From Candidatus Babelota bacterium (lineage in GTDB: Bacteria > Babelota > Babeliae > Babelales > JABDEC01), in assembly GCA_013286795.1 (NCBI GenBank), contig JABDFA010000011.1, positions 6,341-38,340 of the forward strand: a DNA stretch of 32,000 nt, read 5' to 3'. The notes beneath the pieces are model-generated. The model was given only the letters and a program-made list of their open reading frames with translations, was not told the DNA's origin and did not search any database. The position numbers and the translations under genes were made by a program. Positions within the stretch are counted from its first letter, which is position 1. Every line of letters begins with the position of its first letter. Shown in pieces: positions 6,281 through 27,598 of this stretch.

Positions 6281-6444
6281 TGCTCGTATGGTTCGACGGG
6301 CTCACCACGAGCGCGAGGAAAATTCTCTGGATCCGCTCGTCCCGATGCTTCGACAAGCTCAGCATGACTGGAGTTTTTATTACTATCCCCGGCCATCCTG
6401 AATGTAGCGCGTAGCGCGAAATCGAAGGACGAGGGATACGAGCA
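6281..6444. repeat. GC-rich modular palindromic repeat, locus R1
   Basis: Bounded by 9-bp inverted termini tgctcgtat (6281-6289) / atacgagca (6436-6444). It contains module E tcaccacgagcgcgagg (6302-6318) and module D gatgcttcgacaagctcagcatga (6344-6367, identical 24/24 to 14793-14816). It also contains module C ggccatcctga...cgaaatcgaaggac (6391-6430). It is much more GC-rich than its surroundings. Confidence 0.85.
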
Positions 6445-6465
6445 CTTATTAATATAATCTTCTAG

Positions 6466-7134
6466 CTAAAGAATCACACAACATCTTTTTTTTATTTTAT
6501 GATTTTCACGATTTATAGTAAAAGTTCGAACCGGTAAACTCTCTACATATTCTATTTTTTCTAACATGTCAGTTGATAATGGCACGTTACTTCTTATAGT
6601 TCTTATCATATCTTTCATCAAGTCACCTACTTCATTAAATGCAGCTATTCTTTCTACATCATATTTATTTTTAATTTTTTTATTAATATCTGCACCGGAT
6701 TCTAATAATAATCTAACTACAGCAAATCTATGTTGATTGACAGCTAATGCAAGAGGAAAACATCCTTTGAAAAATTTTTCATCCCATTCTGCATTAACAT
6801 CTACACCTAGAGAAATAGCTGTTTTAACCAGATCCAAATTGTTATCGAGAATTCCCTGTTCAAGAATTTTAAGTAATGCCTCTTTTTCTTCATTAGATTG
6901 GCCGATATAAGCATAAACTATTTCAGATAAATCCTGAGCAGGGCAAACATTATTTTCATCAAAAAATCCTTGAATCTTGTTTTTTGCAGAAAGCTTCTTG
7001 AATGATTCGACAACATCTTCTTGTGAATTAAGTTCGCTTTCTATTTTTTCGTCACTAAAATCATAATAATCTAGGTTCATACAATTAGTTTTGGAAAATA
7101 TCACAAGTAATGCGAATATTTTAATTATTTTCAT
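6466..7134 (-). CDS. Secreted ankyrin-repeat protein with C-terminal polybasic CaaX box (CVIL)
   Basis: Leader MKIIKIFALLVIFSKTNC. Ankyrin consensus appears in GCFPLALAVNQHRFAVVRLLLESGADINKK and the preceding repeat. The C-terminus is HKIKKRCCVIL-stop (CVIL at 6469-6480). The start overlaps the uvrB stop by 14 nt. Confidence 0.8.
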   Translation of the reverse strand: MKIIKIFALLVIFSKTNCMNLDYYDFSDEKIESELNSQEDVVESFKKLSAKNKIQGFFDENNVCPAQDLSEIVYAYIGQSNEEKEALLKILEQGILDNNLDLVKTAISLGVDVNAEWDEKFFKGCFPLALAVNQHRFAVVRLLLESGADINKKIKNKYDVERIAAFNEVGDLMKDMIRTIRSNVPLSTDMLEKIEYVESLPVRTFTINRENHKIKKRCCVIL

Positions 7135-9918: not shown

Positions 9919-10428
9919 TCAACAGTATGGAAAACAACATTTTGATTTTTCTACAACATCACTAATTAATTTTTGGACACATTCTCTAAAAAATTTCTCT
10001 TGATCCTGAAGTAAGTCTTCAATTGTTGCTCCCGATAATATTTTTTCATTATAGATCAAAGCAAGCCTGCTTAAATTCAATTTTTTAATAGAATTAATTT
10101 TGTTGGCTATTTTTCTTTTAGTCCAGGGCATAACACGTAAGTTTTCAGATTCTGTTGCAATTATATGATCAAAACTCTCAGTTAAATGTTTAATAAAGTT
10201 ATCACGCGCAGCACTTCTAGCCTCTTCTCTTATAGCTTTAACACTAATACTATTTCTTGGAGGTAGTGGTGGCTTTTGTTGTAATACTACTACAGGATGA
10301 CCTTCAGTTTGATATCCAGGTTGCTGATCAGGAGCACTAGGTCTTGAACTTAAATTATCTCGATAATATTGATCAAATGCACACATCTTGCATACAAATA
10401 ACAGGGGTAAAACTAAGAGCTTTTTCAT
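9919..10428 (-). CDS. Small secreted hypothetical protein (Pro-rich N-terminal region, C-terminal Cys cluster)
   Basis: AGGAG RBS upstream of the ATG at 10428 and leader MKKLLVLPLLFVCKMCA. It contains KPPLPPR (10255-10275) and ends SKCCFPYC. The helical region (KKLNLSRLA...ATIEDLLQDQEKFFRE) resembles the 10503..11126 product (RELNLSQSFA...GTLDALIFEAERKFRD). Confidence 0.6.
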   Translation of the reverse strand: MKKLLVLPLLFVCKMCAFDQYYRDNLSSRPSAPDQQPGYQTEGHPVVVLQQKPPLPPRNSISVKAIREEARSAARDNFIKHLTESFDHIIATESENLRVMPWTKRKIANKINSIKKLNLSRLALIYNEKILSGATIEDLLQDQEKFFRECVQKLISDVVEKSKCCFPYC

Positions 10429-10502
10429 TATAACTCCTAAAAAAATTTAACTACACTCAAGCAATCTAGCAAAAAAAATATATTTCTTACCAGCTTTTTT
10501 AC

Positions 10503-11126
10503 TCATAATTCTAATTCATCAGCAAAAGTTAAAGTAATATCTTCATCTGCTTCATATTCTACTACTTCGTTTTTATCATCTTTTTTTCTACATTTATAGC
10601 ATAAGAACCATTTCTTAAGTTTATCTTTGAAAAGATTTATATTTAATCTATCTTGGTTTCTAATCAATTCTTCAACTGAATCTTCAGCTAGACTAAAAAG
10701 AGTATCCCTAAACTTTCTTTCTGCTTCAAATATTAATGCATCAAGTGTTCCTAGTTGAGCAAAACTCTGTGACAAATTTAATTCTCTCAATATTAAATCT
10801 TTTTTTATTTTGGCACACCTTTTCATATCATTAACAGAAAGGGCTCCTAAATTTTTAATCTTTCTGTTTGCCTCAGGCAAATCCCAACTCTTAACATTCT
10901 TAATGACTGTCCTACTTTCAACCCCAGGAATAACAAACTCTAGTTTAATATTTGCAGCTGGATTCCCTTTTAATCTACTAACATAAATTTTGAAATTAGA
11001 AATATTATATTTAAAACTGTCTGAAAGATAGGATATAGTTTTCTGGGTGTCTGATTTTTTGATATTTTTATCCATGCAATTAACGCTAGACACCAGAAAA
11101 AATAAATTAATTAAGATTTTACCCAT
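10503..11126 (-). CDS. Small secreted hypothetical protein (paralog-like to 9919..10428)
   Basis: AAGGGAGA RBS upstream of the ATG at 11126 and leader MGKILINLFFLVSSVNC. It has a Cys-basic cluster KKWFLCYKCRKKDDK followed by an acidic tail. Confidence 0.6.
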   Translation of the reverse strand: MGKILINLFFLVSSVNCMDKNIKKSDTQKTISYLSDSFKYNISNFKIYVSRLKGNPAANIKLEFVIPGVESRTVIKNVKSWDLPEANRKIKNLGALSVNDMKRCAKIKKDLILRELNLSQSFAQLGTLDALIFEAERKFRDTLFSLAEDSVEELIRNQDRLNINLFKDKLKKWFLCYKCRKKDDKNEVVEYEADEDITLTFADELEL

Positions 11127-12440: not shown

Positions 12441-14231
12441 ATGGCAAAAGAAGTACTAAGTCCATCAAAATATGCAAAAGTATATCTTCCTGAACTGGAC
12501 ATGCCCCAATTAAGTGGTGAGCAAAAACAAGAACTGCAAGATCTATATCAAGAAACCCTCAGCAAATTACAACCGGGTCAATTAACCATAGGAAAAATTT
12601 TAGCTGTAGATCAACAAGGTGTATTAGTCGACATTCAATACAAATCAAATGGACTAATACCAAGATATGAATTCACTGAACATGAATTAAAAGATCTAAC
12701 ACCAGGCGCTAATATAGACGTAATGTTAGATGAACTTGAAAATATTGATGGCAACGTAGTTTTGTCTTATGAAAAAGCAAAAAATCTAAAGGCTTGGGAT
12801 AGAATTACAAAATTATTTGAAGAAAATAAGCCTGTTGAAGGTGTCGTTACCCATACAGTAAAAGGTGGACTAAATGTTGATATAGGGCTTCCGGCTTTTT
12901 TACCTGGATCGCAAGTTGATGTACAGAAAGTTACAAACTTTGAAGGCCTAATAGGACAACATATAGTTGCCAACGTTATAAAAATAAATAAAAAACGTGG
13001 CAATGTAATAATTTCTAGACGCAAGTTCCTATCAGAACAGCAACAAGAAGCTCGCAAACATGTTATGAGCAATATAACAGAAGCTCAAATAATTCAAGGA
13101 ACTGTAAAGAATATAACAAACTATGGGGCTTTTGTAGATATAGGCGGATTAGACGGTCTATTACACATAACCGATATGACATGGGGCAGGATATCCCATC
13201 CAAGCGAAATATTAAAAATTGGGGATAAAATAACAGTAAAAGTTCTATCCATTGATAAGGATAATAATAAAATATCTCTGGGTATGAAACAATTAACTGA
13301 CAATCCATGGCATGTTTTACCTGAATCGATACAAGTTGGGTCCAAAGTTAAGGGTAAAATATCAAGTATTACTGATTATGGTTTATTTATAGAAATACAA
13401 AAAGGTATAGAAGGTTTAGTACATATTTCTGAAGTATCTTGGATTGATAGAATTAAAGATTTAACAAAGCATTTTAAATTAGGCGAAGAAGTGGAAGCCT
13501 TAGTTGTATCTTTAGATAAAGATAACAGAAGAATGTCTTTAAGCATAAAACAACTTGTTGATAATCCATGGAAATCTATTAGTGAAAAATTCAAGGTTGG
13601 CGAAAAAATAAAAGGAAAGATTACCAATATTGCTGATTTTGGTATATTTATTCAATTATTACCTGGAGTCGATGGCCTTGCTCACGTTTCAGATTTGTCT
13701 TGGACAGATCATATTAGTCATCCAGCAGATGTTTATACAAAAGGCCAAGAAGTTGAAGCTGTTATATTATCAATAGATGAAGCCAACAAAAAAGTTTCTC
13801 TTGGTGTTAAACAAATGACAAATGATCCATGGGAAGAAATAGAAGAAAAATATCCTGTAGGGTCTTTAGTTGAAGGTGAAGTTTCCAAAATTACGAATTT
13901 TGGTGCCTTTGTAAAATTACCTACCAAGATTGAAGGCTTGGTGCATGTATCTGAAGTAGACAAAGAAGGCAAAAAACTTGAAGAAATACTTCAAGTTGGC
14001 CAAAAACGTCAATTTAGAGTTATTAATGCGAATAAAAATGAACGCAAATTAGGTTTAAGCTTAAAGCTAGAAGTTGATGAAAAAGCACAAGAAGAAGCAA
14101 GGGCTAAAAAAGCAGCTGCAGCTTCTAAGAAGAAAAAAGAAGCTCCAGTTCAAGAAATGAAAAAAACAGAAAAAGCCAAGTCCGTTCTTCAATTAGAACT
14201 TGAAAAACATGCTAAAAAAAATAAAGAATAA
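12441..14231 (+). CDS. rpsA: 30S ribosomal protein S1
   Basis: 596 aa with six tandem S1 domains (recurring G..V.G.V..I..FGAFV.L..G.EGL.H.S motifs) and a Lys-rich C-terminal tail. Confidence 0.95.
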   Translation: MAKEVLSPSKYAKVYLPELDMPQLSGEQKQELQDLYQETLSKLQPGQLTIGKILAVDQQGVLVDIQYKSNGLIPRYEFTEHELKDLTPGANIDVMLDELENIDGNVVLSYEKAKNLKAWDRITKLFEENKPVEGVVTHTVKGGLNVDIGLPAFLPGSQVDVQKVTNFEGLIGQHIVANVIKINKKRGNVIISRRKFLSEQQQEARKHVMSNITEAQIIQGTVKNITNYGAFVDIGGLDGLLHITDMTWGRISHPSEILKIGDKITVKVLSIDKDNNKISLGMKQLTDNPWHVLPESIQVGSKVKGKISSITDYGLFIEIQKGIEGLVHISEVSWIDRIKDLTKHFKLGEEVEALVVSLDKDNRRMSLSIKQLVDNPWKSISEKFKVGEKIKGKITNIADFGIFIQLLPGVDGLAHVSDLSWTDHISHPADVYTKGQEVEAVILSIDEANKKVSLGVKQMTNDPWEEIEEKYPVGSLVEGEVSKITNFGAFVKLPTKIEGLVHVSEVDKEGKKLEEILQVGQKRQFRVINANKNERKLGLSLKLEVDEKAQEEARAKKAAAASKKKKEAPVQEMKKTEKAKSVLQLELEKHAKKNKE

Positions 14232-14237
14232 TAAACT

Positions 14238-14669
14238 ATGAAAATAATAGAAAAAACATTTGCTATTATAAAGCCTGATGCTGTTAAGGCAAAAAATAGT
14301 GGTAAGATTATAGATATTATAGAAAAAAATGGTTTTGAAATTCTGGACATGAAGAAAATAAATTTAACTCAATCTAAAGCAGAAAAGTTTTATGAAGAGC
14401 ATAAAGAACGTTCTTTCTTTCCAGAATTAGTACAATTCATGACATCTGGACCTATAATCATTATGGCATTAGCTAAGACAGATGCTGTAAATGATTGGCG
14501 GAACTTAATGGGTGTTACTGATCCTAAAAAAGCTGCTCACGGTACAATCCGCCAATTATTTGGCAAAGGTATCGGTGAAAATGCTGTACATGGCTCTGAT
14601 TCTGCTAGTTCTGCTGTTAGAGAATTAAATCTCTTCTTTCCAGAATTAGACCAAATCCAGTCATCCTGA
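14238..14669 (+). CDS. ndk: Nucleoside diphosphate kinase
   Basis: 143 aa. It has TFAIIKPDAV near the N-terminus and the active-site motif NAVHGSDS. It starts 6 nt after the rpsA stop. Its last 4 codons and the TGA stop lie in repeat R3. Confidence 0.95.
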   Translation: MKIIEKTFAIIKPDAVKAKNSGKIIDIIEKNGFEILDMKKINLTQSKAEKFYEEHKERSFFPELVQFMTSGPIIIMALAKTDAVNDWRNLMGVTDPKKAAHGTIRQLFGKGIGENAVHGSDSASSAVRELNLFFPELDQIQSS

Positions 14670-14890
14670 GGGAAGCATCCTTCAACAAGCTCAGGATAAA
14701 CTCCGTGCGAAGTCGAAGGACATAATTAGCCAATAGAAAGGTGGTCATAATTGTAATAATTATGACCACCTTAATTTCCTCGCGCTCGTGGTGATGCTTC
14801 GACAAGCTCAGCATGATCGGACTTTTTCTCTCCTACCAGTCATCCTGAGTGAAGTGCGCAGCACGAAATCGAAGGACAAACCATACGAGC
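14657..14890. repeat. GC-rich modular palindromic repeat, composite locus R3
   Basis: In order: module C copy (14657-14721), a 15-bp hairpin (14738-14772), and inverted module E cctcgcgctcgtggtga (14778-14794, the reverse complement of 6302-6318). Then module D (14793-14816), a second module C (14837-14877), and the shared right end atacgagc (14883-14890). Confidence 0.85.
14738..14772 (+). terminator. Perfect 15-bp hairpin inside R3, possible rpsA-ndk terminator
   Basis: Stem aaggtggtcataatt (14738-14752), loop gtaat, stem aattatgaccacctt (14758-14772). Only a weak T tract (aatttcc) follows. Confidence 0.35.
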
Positions 14891-14917: not shown

Positions 14918-15616
14918 ATGAACACTAAATCAACACTCTACATAACGTTAGTTTTAATATCTATTTTTTCAGTAAATAAACCTATGGGTATAGAATCTCA
15001 AAAAATTAAAAAATGTGCCCGTAGAAAATTGAATAGAAAGTTGCGTAAAGCAATAATTAATAATAATTTAAAAAAAATAGAAACACTTTTGGAAAAAGGC
15101 GCTAATCCTAATATTAAAATAAGGCATATGATCACGCCTCTGGTTTATGCTGTATATGAAATTTCAAGTCCAAAAATGGTTGAACTGTTATTAAAATATA
15201 AGGTAGACGTTAATGATTATTATAAAAGTAATGAATATAAAGCTATACATTTAGCTATTAGAAGCTGCAACATTTGTATTACTAATTTATTAATTGATGC
15301 AAAAGCAGATATCAATATCCAAGACTGTTGTGGCAATGCCAGCTTACATTTTTTAAATATAAAACATAGGCCTGAAACATCCCTTAAACTACTTCCATTA
15401 TTACTTAACCATGGTGGAGATGTAAATATAAAAAACTTTGACAATAAATCTTTTTTAGATTTAGCACAAGAACAAAACAAAAAAGAGATTTTTGACATTA
15501 TCAAAGAACACCAGAAATTAATTATAAAAAAAATAGCTGAAGCAACTAAATATTGTCTGCCAACTGTATTAGAAAATATGATTGGCGAATATATTATATT
15601 TTTGGAAAATAAATGA
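14918..15616 (+). CDS. Secreted ankyrin-repeat protein, array member 1
   Basis: Leader MNTKSTLYITLVLISIFSVNKP and ankyrin repeats (TPLVYAV...MVELLLKYKVDVN; AIHLAI...LLIDAKADINIQD). The C-terminal tail is CLPTVLENMIGEYIIF. The stop overlaps the next start (ATGA). Confidence 0.85.
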   Translation: MNTKSTLYITLVLISIFSVNKPMGIESQKIKKCARRKLNRKLRKAIINNNLKKIETLLEKGANPNIKIRHMITPLVYAVYEISSPKMVELLLKYKVDVNDYYKSNEYKAIHLAIRSCNICITNLLIDAKADINIQDCCGNASLHFLNIKHRPETSLKLLPLLLNHGGDVNIKNFDNKSFLDLAQEQNKKEIFDIIKEHQKLIIKKIAEATKYCLPTVLENMIGEYIIFLENK

Positions 15617-16332
15617 ACAAATTAATTTTATACGTAATAATAACTTTATTATCAATCTCTCTATCTAACTATGCAATGATTCAAGAGTTAAACGAAAAAC
15701 TTCGTAAATCTGTAGATCTACAAGATCTAGAATTAATGGAAAAAACATTAAAAAATGGGGCTGATCCGAACCATATGGTAAAATATTGGACAAACGAAAC
15801 TTTAAAATATTGGCATGGAGATAAACCAATATTACATTATGCTATATTACAAAACTGCGATTCAAAAGTTATTGAACTTTTATTAAAGTATGGAGCAAAT
15901 ATAAATATTACAGAACGCAATAATTGGAATGCCCTATTTTGGGCTATAGAGAGAAATAATTTAATTATAGCGCAATTATTAATTAAACAAGGAATAGATT
16001 TAAATCTACAAGGTTTAAACAATGATACATGCCTTCACAGAATAATTCAATGCAAGTTCCCCTTTTATAATGACCCGCACAACACACAAAAAACTCGTGT
16101 TCTAAAAATCATTAATTTATTACTTCAATTCGGAGCTGATATAAATATAGAAAATAACCAAAATAAAACCTTTTTAGATTTAGTAAAACAATCCCAATAT
16201 AAGGATATACTCAAGGTTGTTAAAGAATGGCAAGAAATAACAAACAAAAAAATATTAGAAGAAACTAGCCCCTACTTGCTCCCTGTATTAGGAAATATAG
16301 TTAGCGAATATGTTACTGGATTAACGATATAA
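15613..16332 (+). CDS. Secreted ankyrin-repeat protein, array member 2
   Basis: Leader MNKLILYVIITLLSISLSNYA. The central region is about 60% identical to member 3 (ILHYAILQNCDSKVIELLLKYGANINIT...). The tail is EWQEITNKKILEETSPYLLPVLGNIVSEYVTG. Confidence 0.88.
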   Translation: MNKLILYVIITLLSISLSNYAMIQELNEKLRKSVDLQDLELMEKTLKNGADPNHMVKYWTNETLKYWHGDKPILHYAILQNCDSKVIELLLKYGANINITERNNWNALFWAIERNNLIIAQLLIKQGIDLNLQGLNNDTCLHRIIQCKFPFYNDPHNTQKTRVLKIINLLLQFGADINIENNQNKTFLDLVKQSQYKDILKVVKEWQEITNKKILEETSPYLLPVLGNIVSEYVTGLTI

Positions 16333-16337
16333 AACTT

Positions 16338-17066
16338 ATGAATAATAAATCAACTTTATCAATAATAATTTCTTTATCAATTTCTCTTGCAAATAATTCC
16401 ATGGATGAAAGGCCTAAAAAAAGAATCTGCTTAGAAAGCTATAGATACGAATATAAAAAATTTAAAGAAGCAATAGATACAGGAAATTTGGAATTAATGG
16501 AAAAACTAATACAAGAAGGAGTTGATCCTAATTGCATGATAGAATATCTGAGTGATAGTAGGTTTGCTTATTTCAACACTGGAGACATGCCAGCATTGCA
16601 TTACTCTATACTAAATGATTGTGACTCAAAAGTTATTGAACTTCTATTAAAATATGTCACGGATATAAATATTACGGACGATAATCATCGGAATGCACTA
16701 TTTTGTGCAGTAGAGAAAGGTAATTTAATTATTGCTCATTTGCTCATTAAACAGGGAATAGATTTTAATTTAAAAGATAATAAAGGTGATACATGTTTGT
16801 GTAAATCATATTACCGTTTTGTTTTTAATCAAAATGGCATCAAAGAAATTCGCTCTCTAAATATAATTCATTTATTAATCTATTCAGGCGCTGATATAAA
16901 CATAAAAGACAGCGATGATTACAGTTTCTTAGATTTAGCAAAAAGGAGTTGGGATGGAAGGATACTTGCAATAATTTTAGACTGGAAAAATTCCATTACT
17001 AAAGGAATTAGAACTTACATGCCGGCTGATTTAGGAAATATAGTTATCAAATATGTTACAGGTTAA
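16338..17066 (+). CDS. Secreted ankyrin-repeat protein, array member 3
   Basis: Leader MNNKSTLSIIISLSISLANNS followed by MDERPKKRICLE. Ankyrin repeats are present, and the tail is YMPADLGNIVIKYVTG. Confidence 0.88.
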   Translation: MNNKSTLSIIISLSISLANNSMDERPKKRICLESYRYEYKKFKEAIDTGNLELMEKLIQEGVDPNCMIEYLSDSRFAYFNTGDMPALHYSILNDCDSKVIELLLKYVTDINITDDNHRNALFCAVEKGNLIIAHLLIKQGIDFNLKDNKGDTCLCKSYYRFVFNQNGIKEIRSLNIIHLLIYSGADINIKDSDDYSFLDLAKRSWDGRILAIILDWKNSITKGIRTYMPADLGNIVIKYVTG

Positions 17067-17080
17067 ATAAAATTAAATTT

Positions 17081-17629
17081 ATGAACGCAAAATTAAACTT
17101 ATTTCTAGTAACATTTTCTCTATCTACGTTTCTTGCAAATAATTCTATGGATGAAAGACCTAAAAAAAGAATTTGTTTAGAAGAAGAATATAGAAAGAGA
17201 AAATCAACATATAATTGGAGGCATGATGTACGTATTAAAGACTTCGAATTCATAGAAGAAGCGTTACGAAACGGAGCAGATCCCAATTTTGAAATAGATT
17301 TTTTTGAAGGTAGCAATCTTTCCTATACAGGTTTACATTATGTAATTAAATGCTATAAATATCTTAGAGAAAAGGAAAAATCCCAACAAGCCTTAAATAT
17401 TATTAGATTATTACTTAAATCTGGTGCTGATATAAATTTAGAAGACACTCTAAAAAAAAGAACTTTTTTAGAACTAGCAAAAGAATCTGATGATGAGGAT
17501 ATACTTAAAATTATTAAAGAATGGCAAGAAGAAACAAACAAAAAAATATTAGAAGAAACTAGTCCCTACATGCCACCTGTATTGGGAAATATAGTTAGTG
17601 AATACGTTACAGGTAAATTAGAACAATAA
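17081..17629 (+). CDS. Secreted ankyrin-repeat protein, array member 4 (short mosaic copy)
   Basis: The 5' end (leader + MDERPKKRICLE) matches member 3. The 3' end (KEWQEETNKKILEETSPYMPPVLGNIVSEYVTG) matches member 2 almost nucleotide for nucleotide. The central ankyrin repeats are reduced. Confidence 0.85.
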   Translation: MNAKLNLFLVTFSLSTFLANNSMDERPKKRICLEEEYRKRKSTYNWRHDVRIKDFEFIEEALRNGADPNFEIDFFEGSNLSYTGLHYVIKCYKYLREKEKSQQALNIIRLLLKSGADINLEDTLKKRTFLELAKESDDEDILKIIKEWQEETNKKILEETSPYMPPVLGNIVSEYVTGKLEQ

Positions 17630-17640
17630 GCAATAATTGC

Positions 17641-17688
17641 GTTCATGGATTCGATACGTTTGCTTCGCAAACACTCACCACGAACGGG
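17641..17688. repeat. GC-rich palindromic repeat, locus R4 (single module A)
   Basis: gttcatggattcgatacgtttgcttcgcaaacactcaccacgaacggg. It differs from 9815-9860 by a 1-nt indel. Confidence 0.85.
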
Positions 17689-17724
17689 TTTTAAAAATTT
17701 TAGATTTTCAAGTTCGCGTTAGAA

Positions 17725-17754
17725 AGGGCAATAACCAAAATAAGTTATTGCCCT
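17725..17754. terminator. Bidirectional hairpin terminator between the ankyrin array and the DUF378 gene
   Basis: 11-bp perfect stem agggcaataac (17725-17735) / gttattgccct (17744-17754) with an 8-nt loop. T-rich sequence follows on the + strand. It lies between convergent genes. Confidence 0.55.
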
Positions 17755-25340: not shown

Positions 25341-26594
25341 TTATTCTTCTGGAGCATACCAATCTTCAGGATCAACTATTCTTATTGGCCGTTCCCCGCC
25401 TTCTATTACAATACCACTTGAAGGTTCTGAAGCTTGTTGTCCTTCTGCTTCTTGTTTTTTTTCTTCTTGTCTTATTCTAGGTTGCGCTTCAGGAGAATGT
25501 TGTATTACAGGCAATTCTAAAGTTAAAGACCAGGGAGTGGAGCCTACTTCAGGTTTAGTGTCTTTTTGGACAGCTGCCCCTGTTAATCTTGCTTGTTCAA
25601 TTCGTTCATTTCTTTCTTTCTCTTCTTGAGCTGAAATTAAACGTTGTGCTTCTCGAATTTTTTCTTGCTTTTTTTGGTGAGCTAATTCTATAGCTTCAAT
25701 TTCAGAACCGAAGTTTTCAGCTTCTTCTCTATTTATTTTTGCTTCTTCAGATCTTACTACAGGTTGAGATTTTGCTGGTTCTGGTTTTATAGATTGTGGT
25801 TTTTGAGAAACTGTTGAAGCTTGTGCTTTTTGAGATTTTGCGCAAGCTGCTTCTATAGCCATTATCTGAGCAAGAAAATCTTCTTCATCTTGTTGTTGTT
25901 TAGGTGCAACATACTTTGGCTCTTCTAGCTTTATTCCAGATTTTTCCTTTTCAAATCGCTCAGAATTCAAGATTTGTTTTATTTGTGGATCTTTTGCATA
26001 GGAATAAGCATCTCGTCGATCTTTATTTACAAATTTAGGATCAGCACCATTAGCCAATAATAATTTAACTGTTTCAATCTTGCCATCTATAGATGCTCTC
26101 ATCAAAGGGGTAAGGTTGTTACTATAAGAGCCATTGACATTTGCTCCTTTTTCTAAAAGCAATTTAGCCAACTCAAAACTTGTATTGGCCGCCAGATAAA
26201 GGGGAGTATCACCATAAGCATTCGAAGCGTTTACATCAGCCCCACTTTCTATGAGTAACTTAGCTATTGGGAAATTTCCACGAAACGCTGCTGTCATCAA
26301 AGGTGTCCATTTAGCACCAGCACTAGTATCAGGAGCATTTACATTTGCTCCATTTTTAATAGCATTTTGAACTTCAATTATGTTACCATGATTTATTGCT
26401 TTTATAAGTTTCTTATTTTCTTCTTTCTCTTTATTTTCTTTTTCTTCTGATTTTTTAGTCTCTTTAGCTTTTTGACAAGCGACTTCAATTTTAGCAATCT
26501 CAGCGCTTAAATCTTCTTGCATTCCCATACCAGAAATTACTGATATATTAGCAAAAGCAACAAAAAATAAGCTAATTAATTTAAGGTTTTTCAT
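25341..26594 (-). CDS. Secreted ankyrin-repeat protein with repeated helical motif and K/E/Q-rich C-terminal region
   Basis: Leader MKNLKLISLFFVAFANISVISG. There are four good ankyrin repeats (TPLMTAAFRGNFPIAKLLIESGADVNA; TPLYLAA...LLLEKGANVNG; TPLMRASIDGKIETVKLLLANGADP). A GGAAGG RBS lies upstream. Confidence 0.88.
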   Translation of the reverse strand: MKNLKLISLFFVAFANISVISGMGMQEDLSAEIAKIEVACQKAKETKKSEEKENKEKEENKKLIKAINHGNIIEVQNAIKNGANVNAPDTSAGAKWTPLMTAAFRGNFPIAKLLIESGADVNASNAYGDTPLYLAANTSFELAKLLLEKGANVNGSYSNNLTPLMRASIDGKIETVKLLLANGADPKFVNKDRRDAYSYAKDPQIKQILNSERFEKEKSGIKLEEPKYVAPKQQQDEEDFLAQIMAIEAACAKSQKAQASTVSQKPQSIKPEPAKSQPVVRSEEAKINREEAENFGSEIEAIELAHQKKQEKIREAQRLISAQEEKERNERIEQARLTGAAVQKDTKPEVGSTPWSLTLELPVIQHSPEAQPRIRQEEKKQEAEGQQASEPSSGIVIEGGERPIRIVDPEDWYAPEE

Positions 26595-26802: not shown

Positions 26803-27598
26803 CTACAAATACTCAAAAATCAGATTTAATAGTTCTTTTGGTAAGGGAGTATTTTTATAAGCAATTTCATACTTATTCTTATTAAAAGAAATACAGTCTT
26901 CCCTTATAGCTTCACGAACCTTACTATTTTTAGCAAAGCTAAAACAATTTAGCCCCATTAGAGTCTTTCAATGCACTATCGGCTCCGGATTTTAATAAGA
27001 ATAAAGCTAGCTTCACATTGCCCATTTTGGCTGCATACATAAGAGCAGTTCTTCCTTGATAAGTTTGCCTATTAACATCGGCATCAAAGCTAACCAATAA
27101 CTTTGCAGCTTTTAAACTTAAAGAATTAAATTTTGAATCACAGACTTCTATCAAAGGTGTAAATCTATGTTTATTTGCTAAATTAGCATCTGCTCTGTTA
27201 AAGAGTAATAATTGTATCATTCTTAAATTAAGAGGAGTTCTGCAAACATTTAATAATGGGGTATTTCCAGCATCATTCTGATTATCTACATTTATACCTT
27301 TTATAGAAAGCAAAAATTCAATAATTTTTTCATCTTCAAAAACAATATTATTTGTTAAAATATTTAAAAGAGAATTTCTATATTTAAATAAACAATTAAC
27401 ATCTGCTCCCTGTTCAATTAACTCTTTAATATTTTCCAAATTTTTTATATGCAGCGTCTGCATTCTTAATAATTCATTTAACGAAGGTATATTTGATTCA
27501 GGTTCCTCTCTTTTTCTTTTTCGATTCATACCATCTATATATAAAAATTGGACACTTAAAATCAAAAAGCAAATTATTAATTTTTTACAATATTTCAC
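26803..27598 (-). pseudogene. Secreted ankyrin-repeat protein interrupted by a 1-nt homopolymer frameshift (called ORF 26939..27598)
   Basis: GTG start at 27598 with AAGGGTGG upstream, leader MKYCKKLIICFLILSVQFLYIDG, and ankyrin repeats. The ORF stops at ...DSNGAKLF-TAG. Removing one base from the A4 run at 26941-26944 continues the frame as SFAKNSKVREAIREDCISFNKNKYEIAYKNTPLPKELLNLIFEYL-TAG (stop 26803-26805). That restores the family C-terminal tail. Confidence 0.6.

Follow-up and report, generated by a model that had tools for sequence, protein, structure and literature searches.

The window, the whole 32,000-nt stretch of DNA analysed here, carries four co-directional paralogous genes between positions 14918 and 17629. 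An earlier note on this DNA had described them as tightly packed, and the ORF coordinates and junctions agree: members 1 and 2 overlap by 4 nt, members 2 and 3 are separated by 5 nt, and members 3 and 4 by 14 nt. The genes, the spacer and hairpin beside them and a further copy elsewhere in the window are as follows.

14657–14878 (no strand): spacer between ndk and member 1; two GC-rich repeat copies, 14657–14722 and 14794–14878, flank a hairpin
14918–15616 (+): member 1, 232 aa; ORF with leader (about residues 1–22), basic stretch, ankyrin repeats, extended cap helix and tail
15613–16332 (+): member 2, 239 aa; ORF with Pfam match; AlphaFold2 model at pLDDT 88.7
16338–17066 (+): member 3, 242 aa; ORF; leader plus MDERPKKRICLE in common with member 4, central ankyrin block in common with member 2
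17081–17629 (+): member 4, 182 aa; ORF; 3′ module like that of member 2
17725–17754 (+): terminator-like hairpin with an 11-bp stem and a T-rich run behind it, 3′ of member 4; consensus scan only
26803–27598 (−): probable fifth member, diverged and frameshifted; leader, NRKRKREEPE, ankyrin repeats

Members 1–3 passed the Pfam Ank/Ank_2 cut-offs, with Ank_2 E values from 8e-15 (member 1) to 4e-21, and a Foldseek search showed that the ankyrin part resembles DARPins (E ~1e-8). Member 4 lacks about 64 residues, equal to roughly two repeats, and for that reason matched only weakly (E ~2e-3). A hydrophobic N-terminal leader is present in all four proteins, with N-terminal Lys, a hydrophobic core of 12–15 residues (10-residue Kyte–Doolittle mean 2.0–3.1) and a small residue ahead of a conserved Met; from inspection and the published figures for the phylum, we call these leaders putative Sec-type. 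Met after the leader was also seen in most leader-bearing proteins of the lineage. In most copies the leader is followed by a basic stretch resembling a nuclear-localisation signal. The 5′ segment gave dN 0.16 and dS 0.73 between members 3 and 4, pointing to purifying selection. A perfect 15-bp hairpin (14738–14772) lies between the GC-rich repeat copies of the upstream spacer, and the hairpin downstream of member 4 probably marks the end of the transcription unit.

The probable fifth family member on the minus strand had been missed by the earlier note. Its frame is broken at a T4 run (26941–26944, reading UUU UAG); the cap helix lies in the next frame, which closes with LPKELLNLIFEYL and a stop codon. 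This tail has 9 of 13 positions in common with that of member 4.

The window belongs to a Candidatus Dependentiae (Babeliales) genome. Its RpsA had Dependentiae/Babeliales MAGs as top matches (73%, 71% and 68% identity), and in a scan of GTDB species genomes the best 25 RpsA loci all came from Dependentiae, Babeliales or TM6 MAGs, at identities up to 73%. Dependentiae are not known to live other than as parasites or symbionts of protists. The phylum is widespread and almost uncultured, and ankyrin proteins of unassigned function can take up more than one tenth of its genes. That signal-peptide ankyrin proteins abound in Dependentiae is already known (PMC4378268, PMC6561590): most ankyrin proteins of cultured members carry signal peptides, namely 79 of 126 in Babela and 78% of 98 in Chromulinavorax (PMC4378268, PMC6561590, PMC4776705). 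The array resembles the expansions of Babela massiliensis and Chromulinavorax destructans, many-copy leader-plus-ankyrin proteins assumed to be secreted factors for manipulating the host, although no conserved C-terminal tail was described there (PMC4378268, PMC6561590).

Mosaic structure of the array

The earlier note had proposed recombination or gene conversion among the copies on the strength of modules shared between different pairs of genes. Two modules of member 4 delimit the pattern.

17109–17182 (+): 5′ module of member 4, 85% identity over 74 nt to member 3, 16363–16436
17454–17613 (+): 3′ module of member 4, 84% identity over 160 nt to member 2, 16160–16319; probable gene-conversion tract

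The sharing of both modules was borne out, but "near-identical", as they had been called, was too strong. Over the segments that the note had paired, the 5′ module of members 3 and 4 falls to 70–75% in a gapped alignment, and the 3′ module of members 2 and 4 reaches 89% only over its last 99 nt (16222–16320 vs 17516–17614). The central block common to members 2 and 3 was recovered at 75% identity over 216 nt. In sliding windows the identities showed a phylogenetic signal that shifts along the array genes, and a maximum chi-square permutation test supported a breakpoint near alignment column 47 when member 4 was compared with members 3 and 2 (p=0.0004) and one near column 188 when member 2 was compared with members 3 and 4 (p=0.0002). 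Between members 2 and 4, dS drops to 0.53 in the 3′ module from about 1.4 elsewhere. The mosaicism exceeds chance, and recombination or gene conversion among the copies is supported.

A relative with about 92% nucleotide identity (L002) has one gene only at the array locus, and member 2 is the sole copy with an ortholog there (97% nucleotide identity); member 1 and the GC-rich repeats of the spacer are absent. The single gene in this relative points to an array of recent and variable make-up. Member 2 shows 22 differences from this ortholog, and these are clustered, 11 of them falling within 60 nt (p=5e-5); in the tail segment the ortholog has the base of member 4 at seven sites, which again fits gene conversion. 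In a comparison with 27 further Dependentiae loci, none had the C-terminal module at this position.

The C-terminal module and its family

As had been claimed, all four members carry a conserved C-terminal tail (CLPTVLENMIGEYI, LLPVLGNIVSEYV, YMPADLGNIVIKYV and YMPPVLGNIVSEYV); it lies 2–6 residues ahead of the stop codon. The conserved helix that the earlier note placed before it was confirmed as well; it belongs to the terminal capping ankyrin repeat, whose outer helix it forms with an extension of about 12 residues. The features of this region are listed here.

15557–15595 (+): tail of member 1, LPTVLENMIGEYI
16168–16266 (+): capping ankyrin repeat of member 2 (TFLDLVKQ...), outer helix extended (DILKVVKEWQEITNKKILEETS)
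16276–16314 (+): tail of member 2, LLPVLGNIVSEYV; AlphaFold2 helix 224–235
17019–17057 (+): tail of member 3, MPADLGNIVIKYV
17570–17608 (+): tail of member 4, MPPVLGNIVSEYV

The tail consensus is an amphipathic stretch of 13 residues, [LM]-P-x-x-L-x-N-[IM]-[VI]-x-[EK]-Y-[VI], followed by 0–10 mostly polar residues. AlphaFold2 placed the capping repeat of member 2 in helices 187–194 and 197–218, and a turn (xPY) joins the extended cap helix to the tail, for which a helix was predicted at pLDDT ~85 when the full-length protein was modelled and at pLDDT 83 for the module alone. The isolated module of 54 residues was itself predicted as a compact three-helix unit (pLDDT 80, pTM 0.57). The tail is the best-conserved segment of these proteins, with a mean pairwise identity of 50% as compared with 28–34% for the leader, the ankyrin part and the cap helix, and member 4 keeps it despite the loss of about two repeats.

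The module is confined to a narrow lineage. An exhaustive HMMER search of 1.84e9 representative proteins returned eight matches, namely members 1, 3 and 4, P0001 (the 90%-identity cluster representative for member 2) and P0036–P0039; each of the eight combines a leader and ankyrin repeats with the helix and a tail 1–10 residues from the end. Diverged versions of the motif occur in two tandem ankyrin arrays from the same samples: in L072 (2044–3423) a related motif lies mid-protein, and in L070 two related motifs lie 56–63 residues upstream of CaaX boxes. At the same loci the motif was carried by 10 of 18 leader-bearing ankyrin ORFs and by none of the eight leader-bearing non-ankyrin ORFs (p=0.008). 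The motif is portable and tied to ankyrin proteins. Sister ankyrin proteins carry the CaaX boxes KKRCCVIL, KRRCLIM and DACVIM. These boxes point to prenylation, which is known only from eukaryotic host enzymes, and suggest action in the host cytosol.

One reading of the module is purely structural: the extended outer helix and the tail would fold back on one another into a small hairpin covering the repeat stack at its hydrophobic end, and the tail, conserved for folding and stability only, would bind nothing. The self-contained prediction of the isolated module speaks for such a cap, as do a tail confidence that is unchanged with or without the ankyrin body, a PDB profile search in which the segment ahead of the tail matched only the C-cap repeats of designed ankyrin proteins, and the placement of the conserved hydrophobics L5, I8, V9, Y12 and V13 on one helix face; given the compact three-helix prediction, this hydrophobic face may be buried in the protein. 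However, the conserved polar residues at positions 7 (Asn/Asp) and 11 (Glu/Asp) would be unexpected in a simple packing helix, ordinary ankyrin domains need no such addition, the tail is better conserved than the cap helix against which it would pack, and the related motifs of L072 and L070 lie away from the stack end. We regard a pure cap as rather unlikely and lean towards the tail being a docking element.

Possible docking partners and host engagement

The earlier note had likened the tail to the first helix of the F-box. The best local alignment of hhalign set the tail on F-box helix 1 in the register proposed there, with P=0.031 and a probability of 1.6%. The suggested Pfam searches (F-box PF00646, F-box-like PF12937 and PRANC PF09372) gave no match at E<=10 in about 20 proteins with the tail or a related LP motif (members 1–4, the fifth tail, P0036–P0039 and the L070/L072 paralogs), a weak null in that a 13-residue match could hardly clear the HMMER filters. 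Searched with Foldseek, the AlphaFold model of the C-terminal module matched nothing in the PDB, where many F-box chains are deposited. The three-helix F-box domain of about 40–50 residues is absent, as the proteins end 0–10 residues past the first helix.

The signature of F-box helix 1 is L-P-x-E-[IL]-x-x-x-[IV]-[LF]-x-x-L. A canonical helix-1 HMM, built from the first helices of seven F-box sequences, left the tails of members 1–4 unscored. It ranked the tail of the fifth copy first among 3185 scored segments, at a non-significant 9.0 bits, and as the single best match among 3091 Dependentiae ORFs. The diverged members LPKELLNLIFEYL and LPKELAEIIHGY look like canonical F-box first helices. 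The tails of members 1–4 have conserved Asn7 and Glu11-Tyr12, and Asn7 together with the small residues 6 and 10 sits where F-boxes are usually hydrophobic. The very loose poxviral consensus phi-P-X2-phi-X3-phi (PMC6232478) matches members 1, 3 and 4, the fifth copy and P0038, while the Pro comes one residue later in member 2, P0036, P0037 and P0039. From these sequence comparisons, the identity of the tail as F-box helix 1 is neither confirmed nor excluded.

The tail lacks the PRANC features, with no PF09372 match at E<=10 and a single helix, not two, following the LP. The tail does occupy a PRANC-type position, after the capping repeat and its extended helix. The bacterial PRANC proteins described so far are not known to have Sec leaders. 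PRANC is a two-helix truncated F-box within a longer domain, unlike the one helix here. The likeness to the PRANC/ANK-F-box proteins of poxviruses, Orientia, Wolbachia and Nasonia lies in multi-copy ankyrin proteins of intracellular parasites with a C-terminal LP-helix that comes after a linker, and in families whose evolution is driven by duplication and truncation (PMC4353913, PMC9414399). The Elongin BC box ([TSP]-L-X3-[CSA]-X3-phi) was likewise seen in no tail on inspection by eye.

The closest functional precedent is cowpox CP77, which binds Skp1 through an F-box cut to its first helix, 13 residues long and possibly the minimum for Skp1 binding (PMC4353913, PMC3185573). The earlier note had mentioned a minimal Skp1-binding element and did not cite this published precedent (PMC3185573, PMC4353913). 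CP77 is similar in having ankyrin repeats followed by a C-terminal helix of about 13 residues that starts with a hydrophobic residue and Pro (PMC4353913, PMC3185573), but it is viral and leaderless, and the likeness is to its description and not to its sequence.

A docking helix could also serve a host factor other than Skp1, such as an importin, an exportin, a hub of membrane trafficking or another cullin adaptor, with the F-box likeness being convergent or superficial. The unscored tails of members 1–4 and their Asn7, atypical of F-boxes, are consistent with this, as are the basic nuclear-localisation-like stretches after the leaders. In the poxviral ANK/BC proteins (ectromelia 010, cowpox 019), a transferable C-terminal helix of about 10 residues recruits a cullin-RING ligase, reaching Cullin-2 through Elongin C, and grafting the 10-residue BC box on an ankyrin-only protein suffices for Cullin-2 recruitment (PMC6232478). 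The tails here lack the BC-box consensus, however, they match no other known motif, and the diverged members retain canonical-looking F-box first helices; we consider a non-Skp1 partner unlikely.

Our preferred explanation remains docking to Skp1. The array genes would encode paralogous host-directed ankyrin effectors of a Dependentiae (Babeliales) bacterium, in which the Sec-type leader moves the protein out of the bacterial cytoplasm, a basic stretch in most copies resembles a nuclear-localisation signal, a variable ankyrin stack picks the host target, and a constant C-terminal module (extended outer helix, xPY turn and 13-residue helix) docks to a conserved host factor. The likeliest such factor is Skp1 in the SCF ubiquitin ligase, bound much as CP77 binds it; host proteins held by the ankyrin part would then be offered up for ubiquitylation. 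The array would diversify through duplication, loss and gene conversion while the tail is held constant or homogenised. F-box and other ubiquitin-system proteins are on record for the phylum (PMC4378268, PMC6561590, PMC4776705). Architecture, taxonomic origin, mosaicism, the pattern of conservation, the predicted helix and the narrow phyletic range come from the analysis itself, while export, action in the host cytosol and the binding partner are inferred. The parts of this explanation differ in strength: it is highly likely that the genes encode secreted ankyrin effectors and are paralogs that recombine, Skp1 as the docking partner is possible though on the doubtful side, and the explanation as a whole is offered tentatively. 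A bacterial export or sorting signal, read in the periplasm by a type II system or during vesicle loading for outer-membrane crossing, is disfavoured and most improbable: all family members have a leader, the tail mostly lies within 10 residues of the C-terminus and type II is the sole secretion system reported for Babela, with poorly understood substrate recognition (PMC4378268), but the motif is absent from the eight leader-bearing non-ankyrin ORFs, is internal in some paralogs, and by sequence inspection has neither the LPXTG/PEP-CTERM layout (a hydrophobic transmembrane segment and then a basic tail) nor a terminal aromatic beta-signal or beta-sandwich C-terminal domain.

Among bacterial effectors, AnkB of the amoeba-associated Legionella pneumophila offers a parallel in which ankyrin repeats are combined with a Skp1-docking element and prenylation by the host (PMC4776705), much as the L070 sister proteins join their ankyrin repeats to the LP-helix and a CaaX box. 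AnkB differs in having a full N-terminal F-box and Dot/Icm export, whereas Sec-type leaders and a helix after the repeats are found here. PDB 5k35 was among the matches of the F-box search. The CaaX boxes of the sisters and the Met after the leader suggest adaptation to the eukaryotic cytosol.

If the tail were only a structural cap, the locus would be an ordinary fast-evolving effector gene array. A short, conserved and portable helix marks a subset of ankyrin proteins and provides a testable handle on host engagement. A bolder and doubtful proposal is that this single 13-residue LP-helix, evolved or retained by one lineage of Dependentiae and fused directly to the last repeat of Sec-exported ankyrin proteins, spread and homogenised among paralogs by gene conversion and missed by domain models, is the smallest known bacterial cullin-ligase docking element. 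One-helix F-box mimics would then be no peculiarity of CP77 but a solution arrived at repeatedly, and the ankyrin/F-box strategy of poxviruses, Orientia, Wolbachia and Legionella would reach another phylum in a form invisible to databases; many "ankyrin-only" effectors of Dependentiae and other protist parasites could then be unrecognised ubiquitin-ligase adaptors.

Layout of the array and exchange between its members

The ankyrin gene array is flanked by rpsA-ndk (12441-14669) on one side and by a convergent DUF378, nusB, efp block on the other. All four co-directional ORFs described in the earlier note were present on the plus strand, following one another in order from member 1 to member 4, the first two overlapping by 4 nt (ATGA) and the later junctions being gaps of 5 nt and 14 nt, and the 13-residue C-terminal tail quoted there for all four was confirmed, 2-6 residues ahead of the stop.

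Ankyrin genes of the window carrying the tail, and the hairpin beyond the array
14918-15616, plus strand: member 1, 232-aa ORF
15613-16332, plus strand: member 2, 239-aa ORF
16338-17066, plus strand: member 3, 242-aa ORF
17081-17629, plus strand: member 4, 182-aa ORF
17725-17754: terminator-like hairpin
26803-27598, minus strand: fifth copy, with leader, NRKRKREEPE, ankyrin repeats, cap helix and tail; frame broken

Pfam detected ankyrin repeats in all four members, strongly in members 1-3 and weakly in member 4, in which about 64 residues (roughly two repeats) are missing. Each N-terminus is lysine-containing and continues into a 12-15-residue hydrophobic core. An Rfam search of the window gave no match. 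When the window RpsA was scanned against GTDB species representatives, a set outside which the window's own genome falls, the best matches were Candidatus Dependentiae, Babeliales and TM6 MAGs (73%, 71%, 68% identity and lower), and at 27 other Dependentiae loci no ankyrin gene with the tail adjoins rpsA-ndk.

The members share sequence in the mosaic manner proposed earlier, at 75-89% identity rather than as near-identical modules: a 5' module is common to members 3 and 4 (85% over 74 nt), a 3' module to members 2 and 4 (84% over 160 nt, or 89% over the 99 nt originally delimited), and the centre to members 2 and 3 (75% over 216 nt). When the genes were aligned by codon, the member closest to each gene differed from one part of it to another, and maximum-chi-square permutation tests placed one breakpoint near column 47 (p=0.0004) and one near column 188 (p=0.0002) of the alignment. 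For the pair of members 2 and 4, dS is 0.53 in the 3' module vs about 1.4 elsewhere, a drop that purifying selection alone would not produce. The 5' module shared by members 3 and 4 shows a modest dip; the central block of members 2 and 3 shows none, its resemblance lying mostly at non-synonymous sites.

A Logan contig from a close relative (L002) shows synteny with the window, the nucleotide identity being about 92%. Only one ankyrin gene lies there between ndk and DUF378, the member 2 ortholog (97% identity), and member 1 is absent from the locus. Member 2 and this ortholog show 22 differences, which cluster: 8 are in columns 60-67 and 10 in columns 240-260, which encode the tail, while between those clusters the genes agree at 347 of 348 nt; 11 differences fall within 60 nt (permutation test, p=5e-5), and at 7 tail sites the ortholog has the base of member 4. 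Short conversion tracts, one of them spanning the tail, would be expected to leave such a pattern. Together with the breakpoints and the dS drop, this clustering supports the proposed recombination or gene conversion between copies; the array is recent and sequence exchange is still going on. Moreover, the near-identity in mid-gene (member 2, 15613-16332, against L002 9416-10135) despite the ~92% backbone suggests that the member 2 gene was recently exchanged between lineages.

Exactly in place of members 3 and 4, L002 carries a hicB-like antitoxin gene (10151-10549, minus strand). We also noted intergenic GC-rich repeats of 60-160 nt adjoining ankyrin genes (window 14657-14722, 14794-14878, 6283-6445 and about 17640-17700; cores TTCGACAAGCTCAG, CATCCTGA and CGAAATCGAAGGAC) in a genome of 30% GC. 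The two upstream of member 1 are, like member 1, absent from L002, and the repeats may be small mobile elements or recombination sites.

The first part of the fifth copy (26939-27598, minus strand) ends at a T4 run (26941-26944, UUU UAG), and the next frame encodes the cap helix, then LPKELLNLIFEYL and a stop codon at 26803-26805; with one T less in the run, both parts would lie in one frame. UUU UAG is a perfect +1 slip site beside a stop codon, with no stimulatory element at prfB-like spacing, and a programmed +1 frameshift, a pseudogene and a homopolymer sequencing error are equally possible. The copy is diverged: a narrow tail HMM gives it 3 bits, and its tail has 9 of 13 positions in common with that of member 4.

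The C-terminal module and its relatives

The AlphaFold2 model of member 2 (mean pLDDT 88.7) has helices after the ankyrin stack at residues 187-194, 197-218 and 224-235. A profile of the last 54 residues matched PDB sequences over its first ~30 positions only, and what it matched there was the capping repeat at the C-terminus of designed ankyrin proteins (TPLDLAREHGNEEVVKLLEK); all hits were ankyrin C-caps, with no F-box chain among them. The conserved helix reported to precede the tail is therefore present; it is predicted to be the last repeat's outer helix, lengthened by about 12 residues, most of them charged. It is followed by a turn (xPY) and the 13-residue tail helix. In isolation, this module was predicted as a compact three-helix unit (pLDDT 80, pTM 0.57), the tail having the same confidence as in the full-length protein. 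Foldseek with the full-length model retrieved only DARPins and other ankyrin proteins from the PDB; the isolated module had no PDB match and none below E=1 in BFVD.

A HMMER search of all 1.84e9 representative proteins with the module (E<=0.001) yielded eight: members 1, 3 and 4, the 90%-identity cluster representative P0001 standing for member 2, and four further database proteins (P0036-P0039). Each of the eight combines leader, ankyrin repeats and extended helix with the tail, whose end lies 1-10 residues from the C-terminus. Mean pairwise identity is highest in the tail (50%), vs 28-34% in the leader, ankyrin part and cap helix. P0036 is encoded in L072, where six leader-bearing ankyrin genes stand in tandem, and its source run also yielded a contig identical to the window; P0037 comes from the same run as L002. 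Exact look-ups of member 4 and P0039 in the contig index gave no record. Searches for the module in GTDB species genomes, JGI metagenome contigs and IMG/VR gave pattern matches, none of them confirmed, and a word-indexed search with the 55-residue module, a method that seems to need targets of similar length, found only the fifth copy's 51-aa ORF.

Diverged forms of the tail motif occur in the tandem ankyrin arrays from these samples (L072, L070). They lie 13 residues (LPKELAEIIHGY) and 25 residues (LPEALSDLVLDY) before the protein end, at the end itself (YLSEVLEDIVCDYVY), mid-protein in a 459-aa product (LSKDLVNIVSEYV), and 56-63 residues upstream of the CaaX boxes KRRCLIM and DACVIM (ILPAELENLVIGY, NLPTVLEDIVAGY). 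Of the leader-bearing ORFs at these loci, 10 of 18 with ankyrin repeats carry the motif, vs 0 of 8 non-ankyrin ORFs (p=0.008). Two candidates were set aside: the related-looking internal motif CPAQDLSEIVYAYIG of a CaaX protein (6466-7134, minus strand), which the tail HMM did not retrieve, and the tail of P0007 (LCDTLIFKNIFDYL), alignable only with a gap.

Leaders, basic stretches and CaaX boxes

Leaders are carried by 79 of the 126 ankyrin proteins of Babela and by 78% of the 98 of Chromulinavorax; type II is the only secretion system in Babela, and F-box and other ubiquitin-system proteins have been reported from Dependentiae (PMC4378268, PMC6561590, PMC4776705). Since leader plus ankyrin is usual in cultured members of the phylum, the architecture is ordinary here and the tail is the specific feature.

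In about 20 of 25 hydrophobic-leader ORFs, ankyrin or not, surveyed in the window, L002 and three other compared loci (L003, L070, L072), a Met directly follows the leader and a small residue precedes it (junctions NYA/M, NNS/MD, VNA/ME, ILS/MD; window ORFs 15613, 16338, 17081, 27780, 10503-11126 and 733-1866). If signal peptidase cut there, the mature proteins would start with Met, often Met-Asp or Met-Glu, a start that is stabilising under the eukaryotic N-end rule; alternatively, the Met may be an internal start codon giving a leaderless form. Basic NLS-like stretches directly follow leaders at 16401-16436, 17147-17200, about 27500-27530 (minus strand) and 14990-15040: ERPKKRICLE in members 3 and 4, with an extra RKRK in member 4, NRKRKREEPE in the fifth copy and KIKKCARRKLNRKLRK in member 1. 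A further 417-aa protein (25341-26594, minus strand) has a leader, ankyrin repeats and a long C-terminal half rich in Glu, Lys and Gln, in which a motif occurs three times (AEIAKIEVACQKAKE, AQIMAIEAACAKSQKAQ, SEIEAIELAHQKKQEK), and is without the LP tail.

The leader-bearing ankyrin protein at 6466-7134 (minus strand) ends in the CaaX box KKRCCVIL, conserved as KQRCCVIL in L002 (1199-1933, minus strand), and two more in L070 (11156-12121 and 12148-13200, both minus strand) end in KRRCLIM and DACVIM. These proteins recall Legionella AnkB; in the literature searched, no paper connects CaaX boxes with Dependentiae. To judge from their sequences, such boxes argue that these sister proteins meet host cytosolic enzymes.

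The F-box reading of the tail

The tail had been likened to F-box helix 1. In the Pfam check proposed for this, F-box, F-box-like and PRANC profiles had no match at E<=10 in ~20-22 proteins with the tail or a related LP motif, a search with little power for a 13-residue match. Our F-box reference set consisted of two PDB-verified sequences, four others and a consensus. The only hhalign alignment set the tail (LP~~L~NIV~eYv) on F-box helix 1 (lP~e~~~~Ils~L) in the register proposed, but with P=0.031 and a probability of 1.6%. A canonical helix-1-only HMM was run against 3091 six-frame ORFs from Dependentiae loci; its top domain overall was the tail of the fifth copy (9.0 bits, not significant), LPKELAEIIHGY ranked 21st, and the tails of members 1-4 did not score. 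Asn7 and the small residues 6 and 10 of the tail stand against usually hydrophobic F-box positions, and the proline comes one residue later in member 2 and three other family members. Taken together, the Pfam, hhalign, fold and helix-1 results do not establish F-box or PRANC family membership, and some family members' tails look, in sequence, like canonical F-box first helices. By eye, the tails do not fit BC-box, LPXTG/PEP-CTERM, outer-membrane beta-signal, LIR, YxxPhi or classical nuclear-export patterns.

F-box-like N-terminal starts also occur in other Dependentiae MAGs, at L044 2060-2950 (minus strand), at L006 16095-17240 (plus strand) and in the database protein P0022 (LPEEIWSKIMDFL, LPNELSYHVAGFV, LPNDILNIIALNL). 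Pfam support for them is faint at best (P0022, F-box-like_2, E=0.06); P0022 also has a leader and ankyrin repeats.

Skp1 contacts are made mostly by F-box helix 1 and the preceding loop (PMC4353913, PMC3185573), and cowpox CP77, an ankyrin protein with a 13-residue one-helix F-box, provides a precedent. We regard the F-box reading as a reasonable lead with functional precedent, for which our analyses gave no statistical or structural support, and Skp1 as the leading, though tentative, candidate partner of the tail. That the tail is purely a structural cap, within a module predicted to be compact, is rather doubtful; binding to another host partner is unlikely, and an export signal very improbable.

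As the best explanation, we propose that these recombining ankyrin paralogs are effectors that would be secreted, and that their constant C-terminal helix would serve for docking. A 10-residue BC box grafted on an ankyrin-only protein suffices for Cullin-2 recruitment (PMC6232478); the consensus of that box does not fit the present tails. Such precedents make the pairing of a short, constant docking helix with a variable ankyrin body an established design among intracellular parasites, and the conservation pattern found here fits that design.
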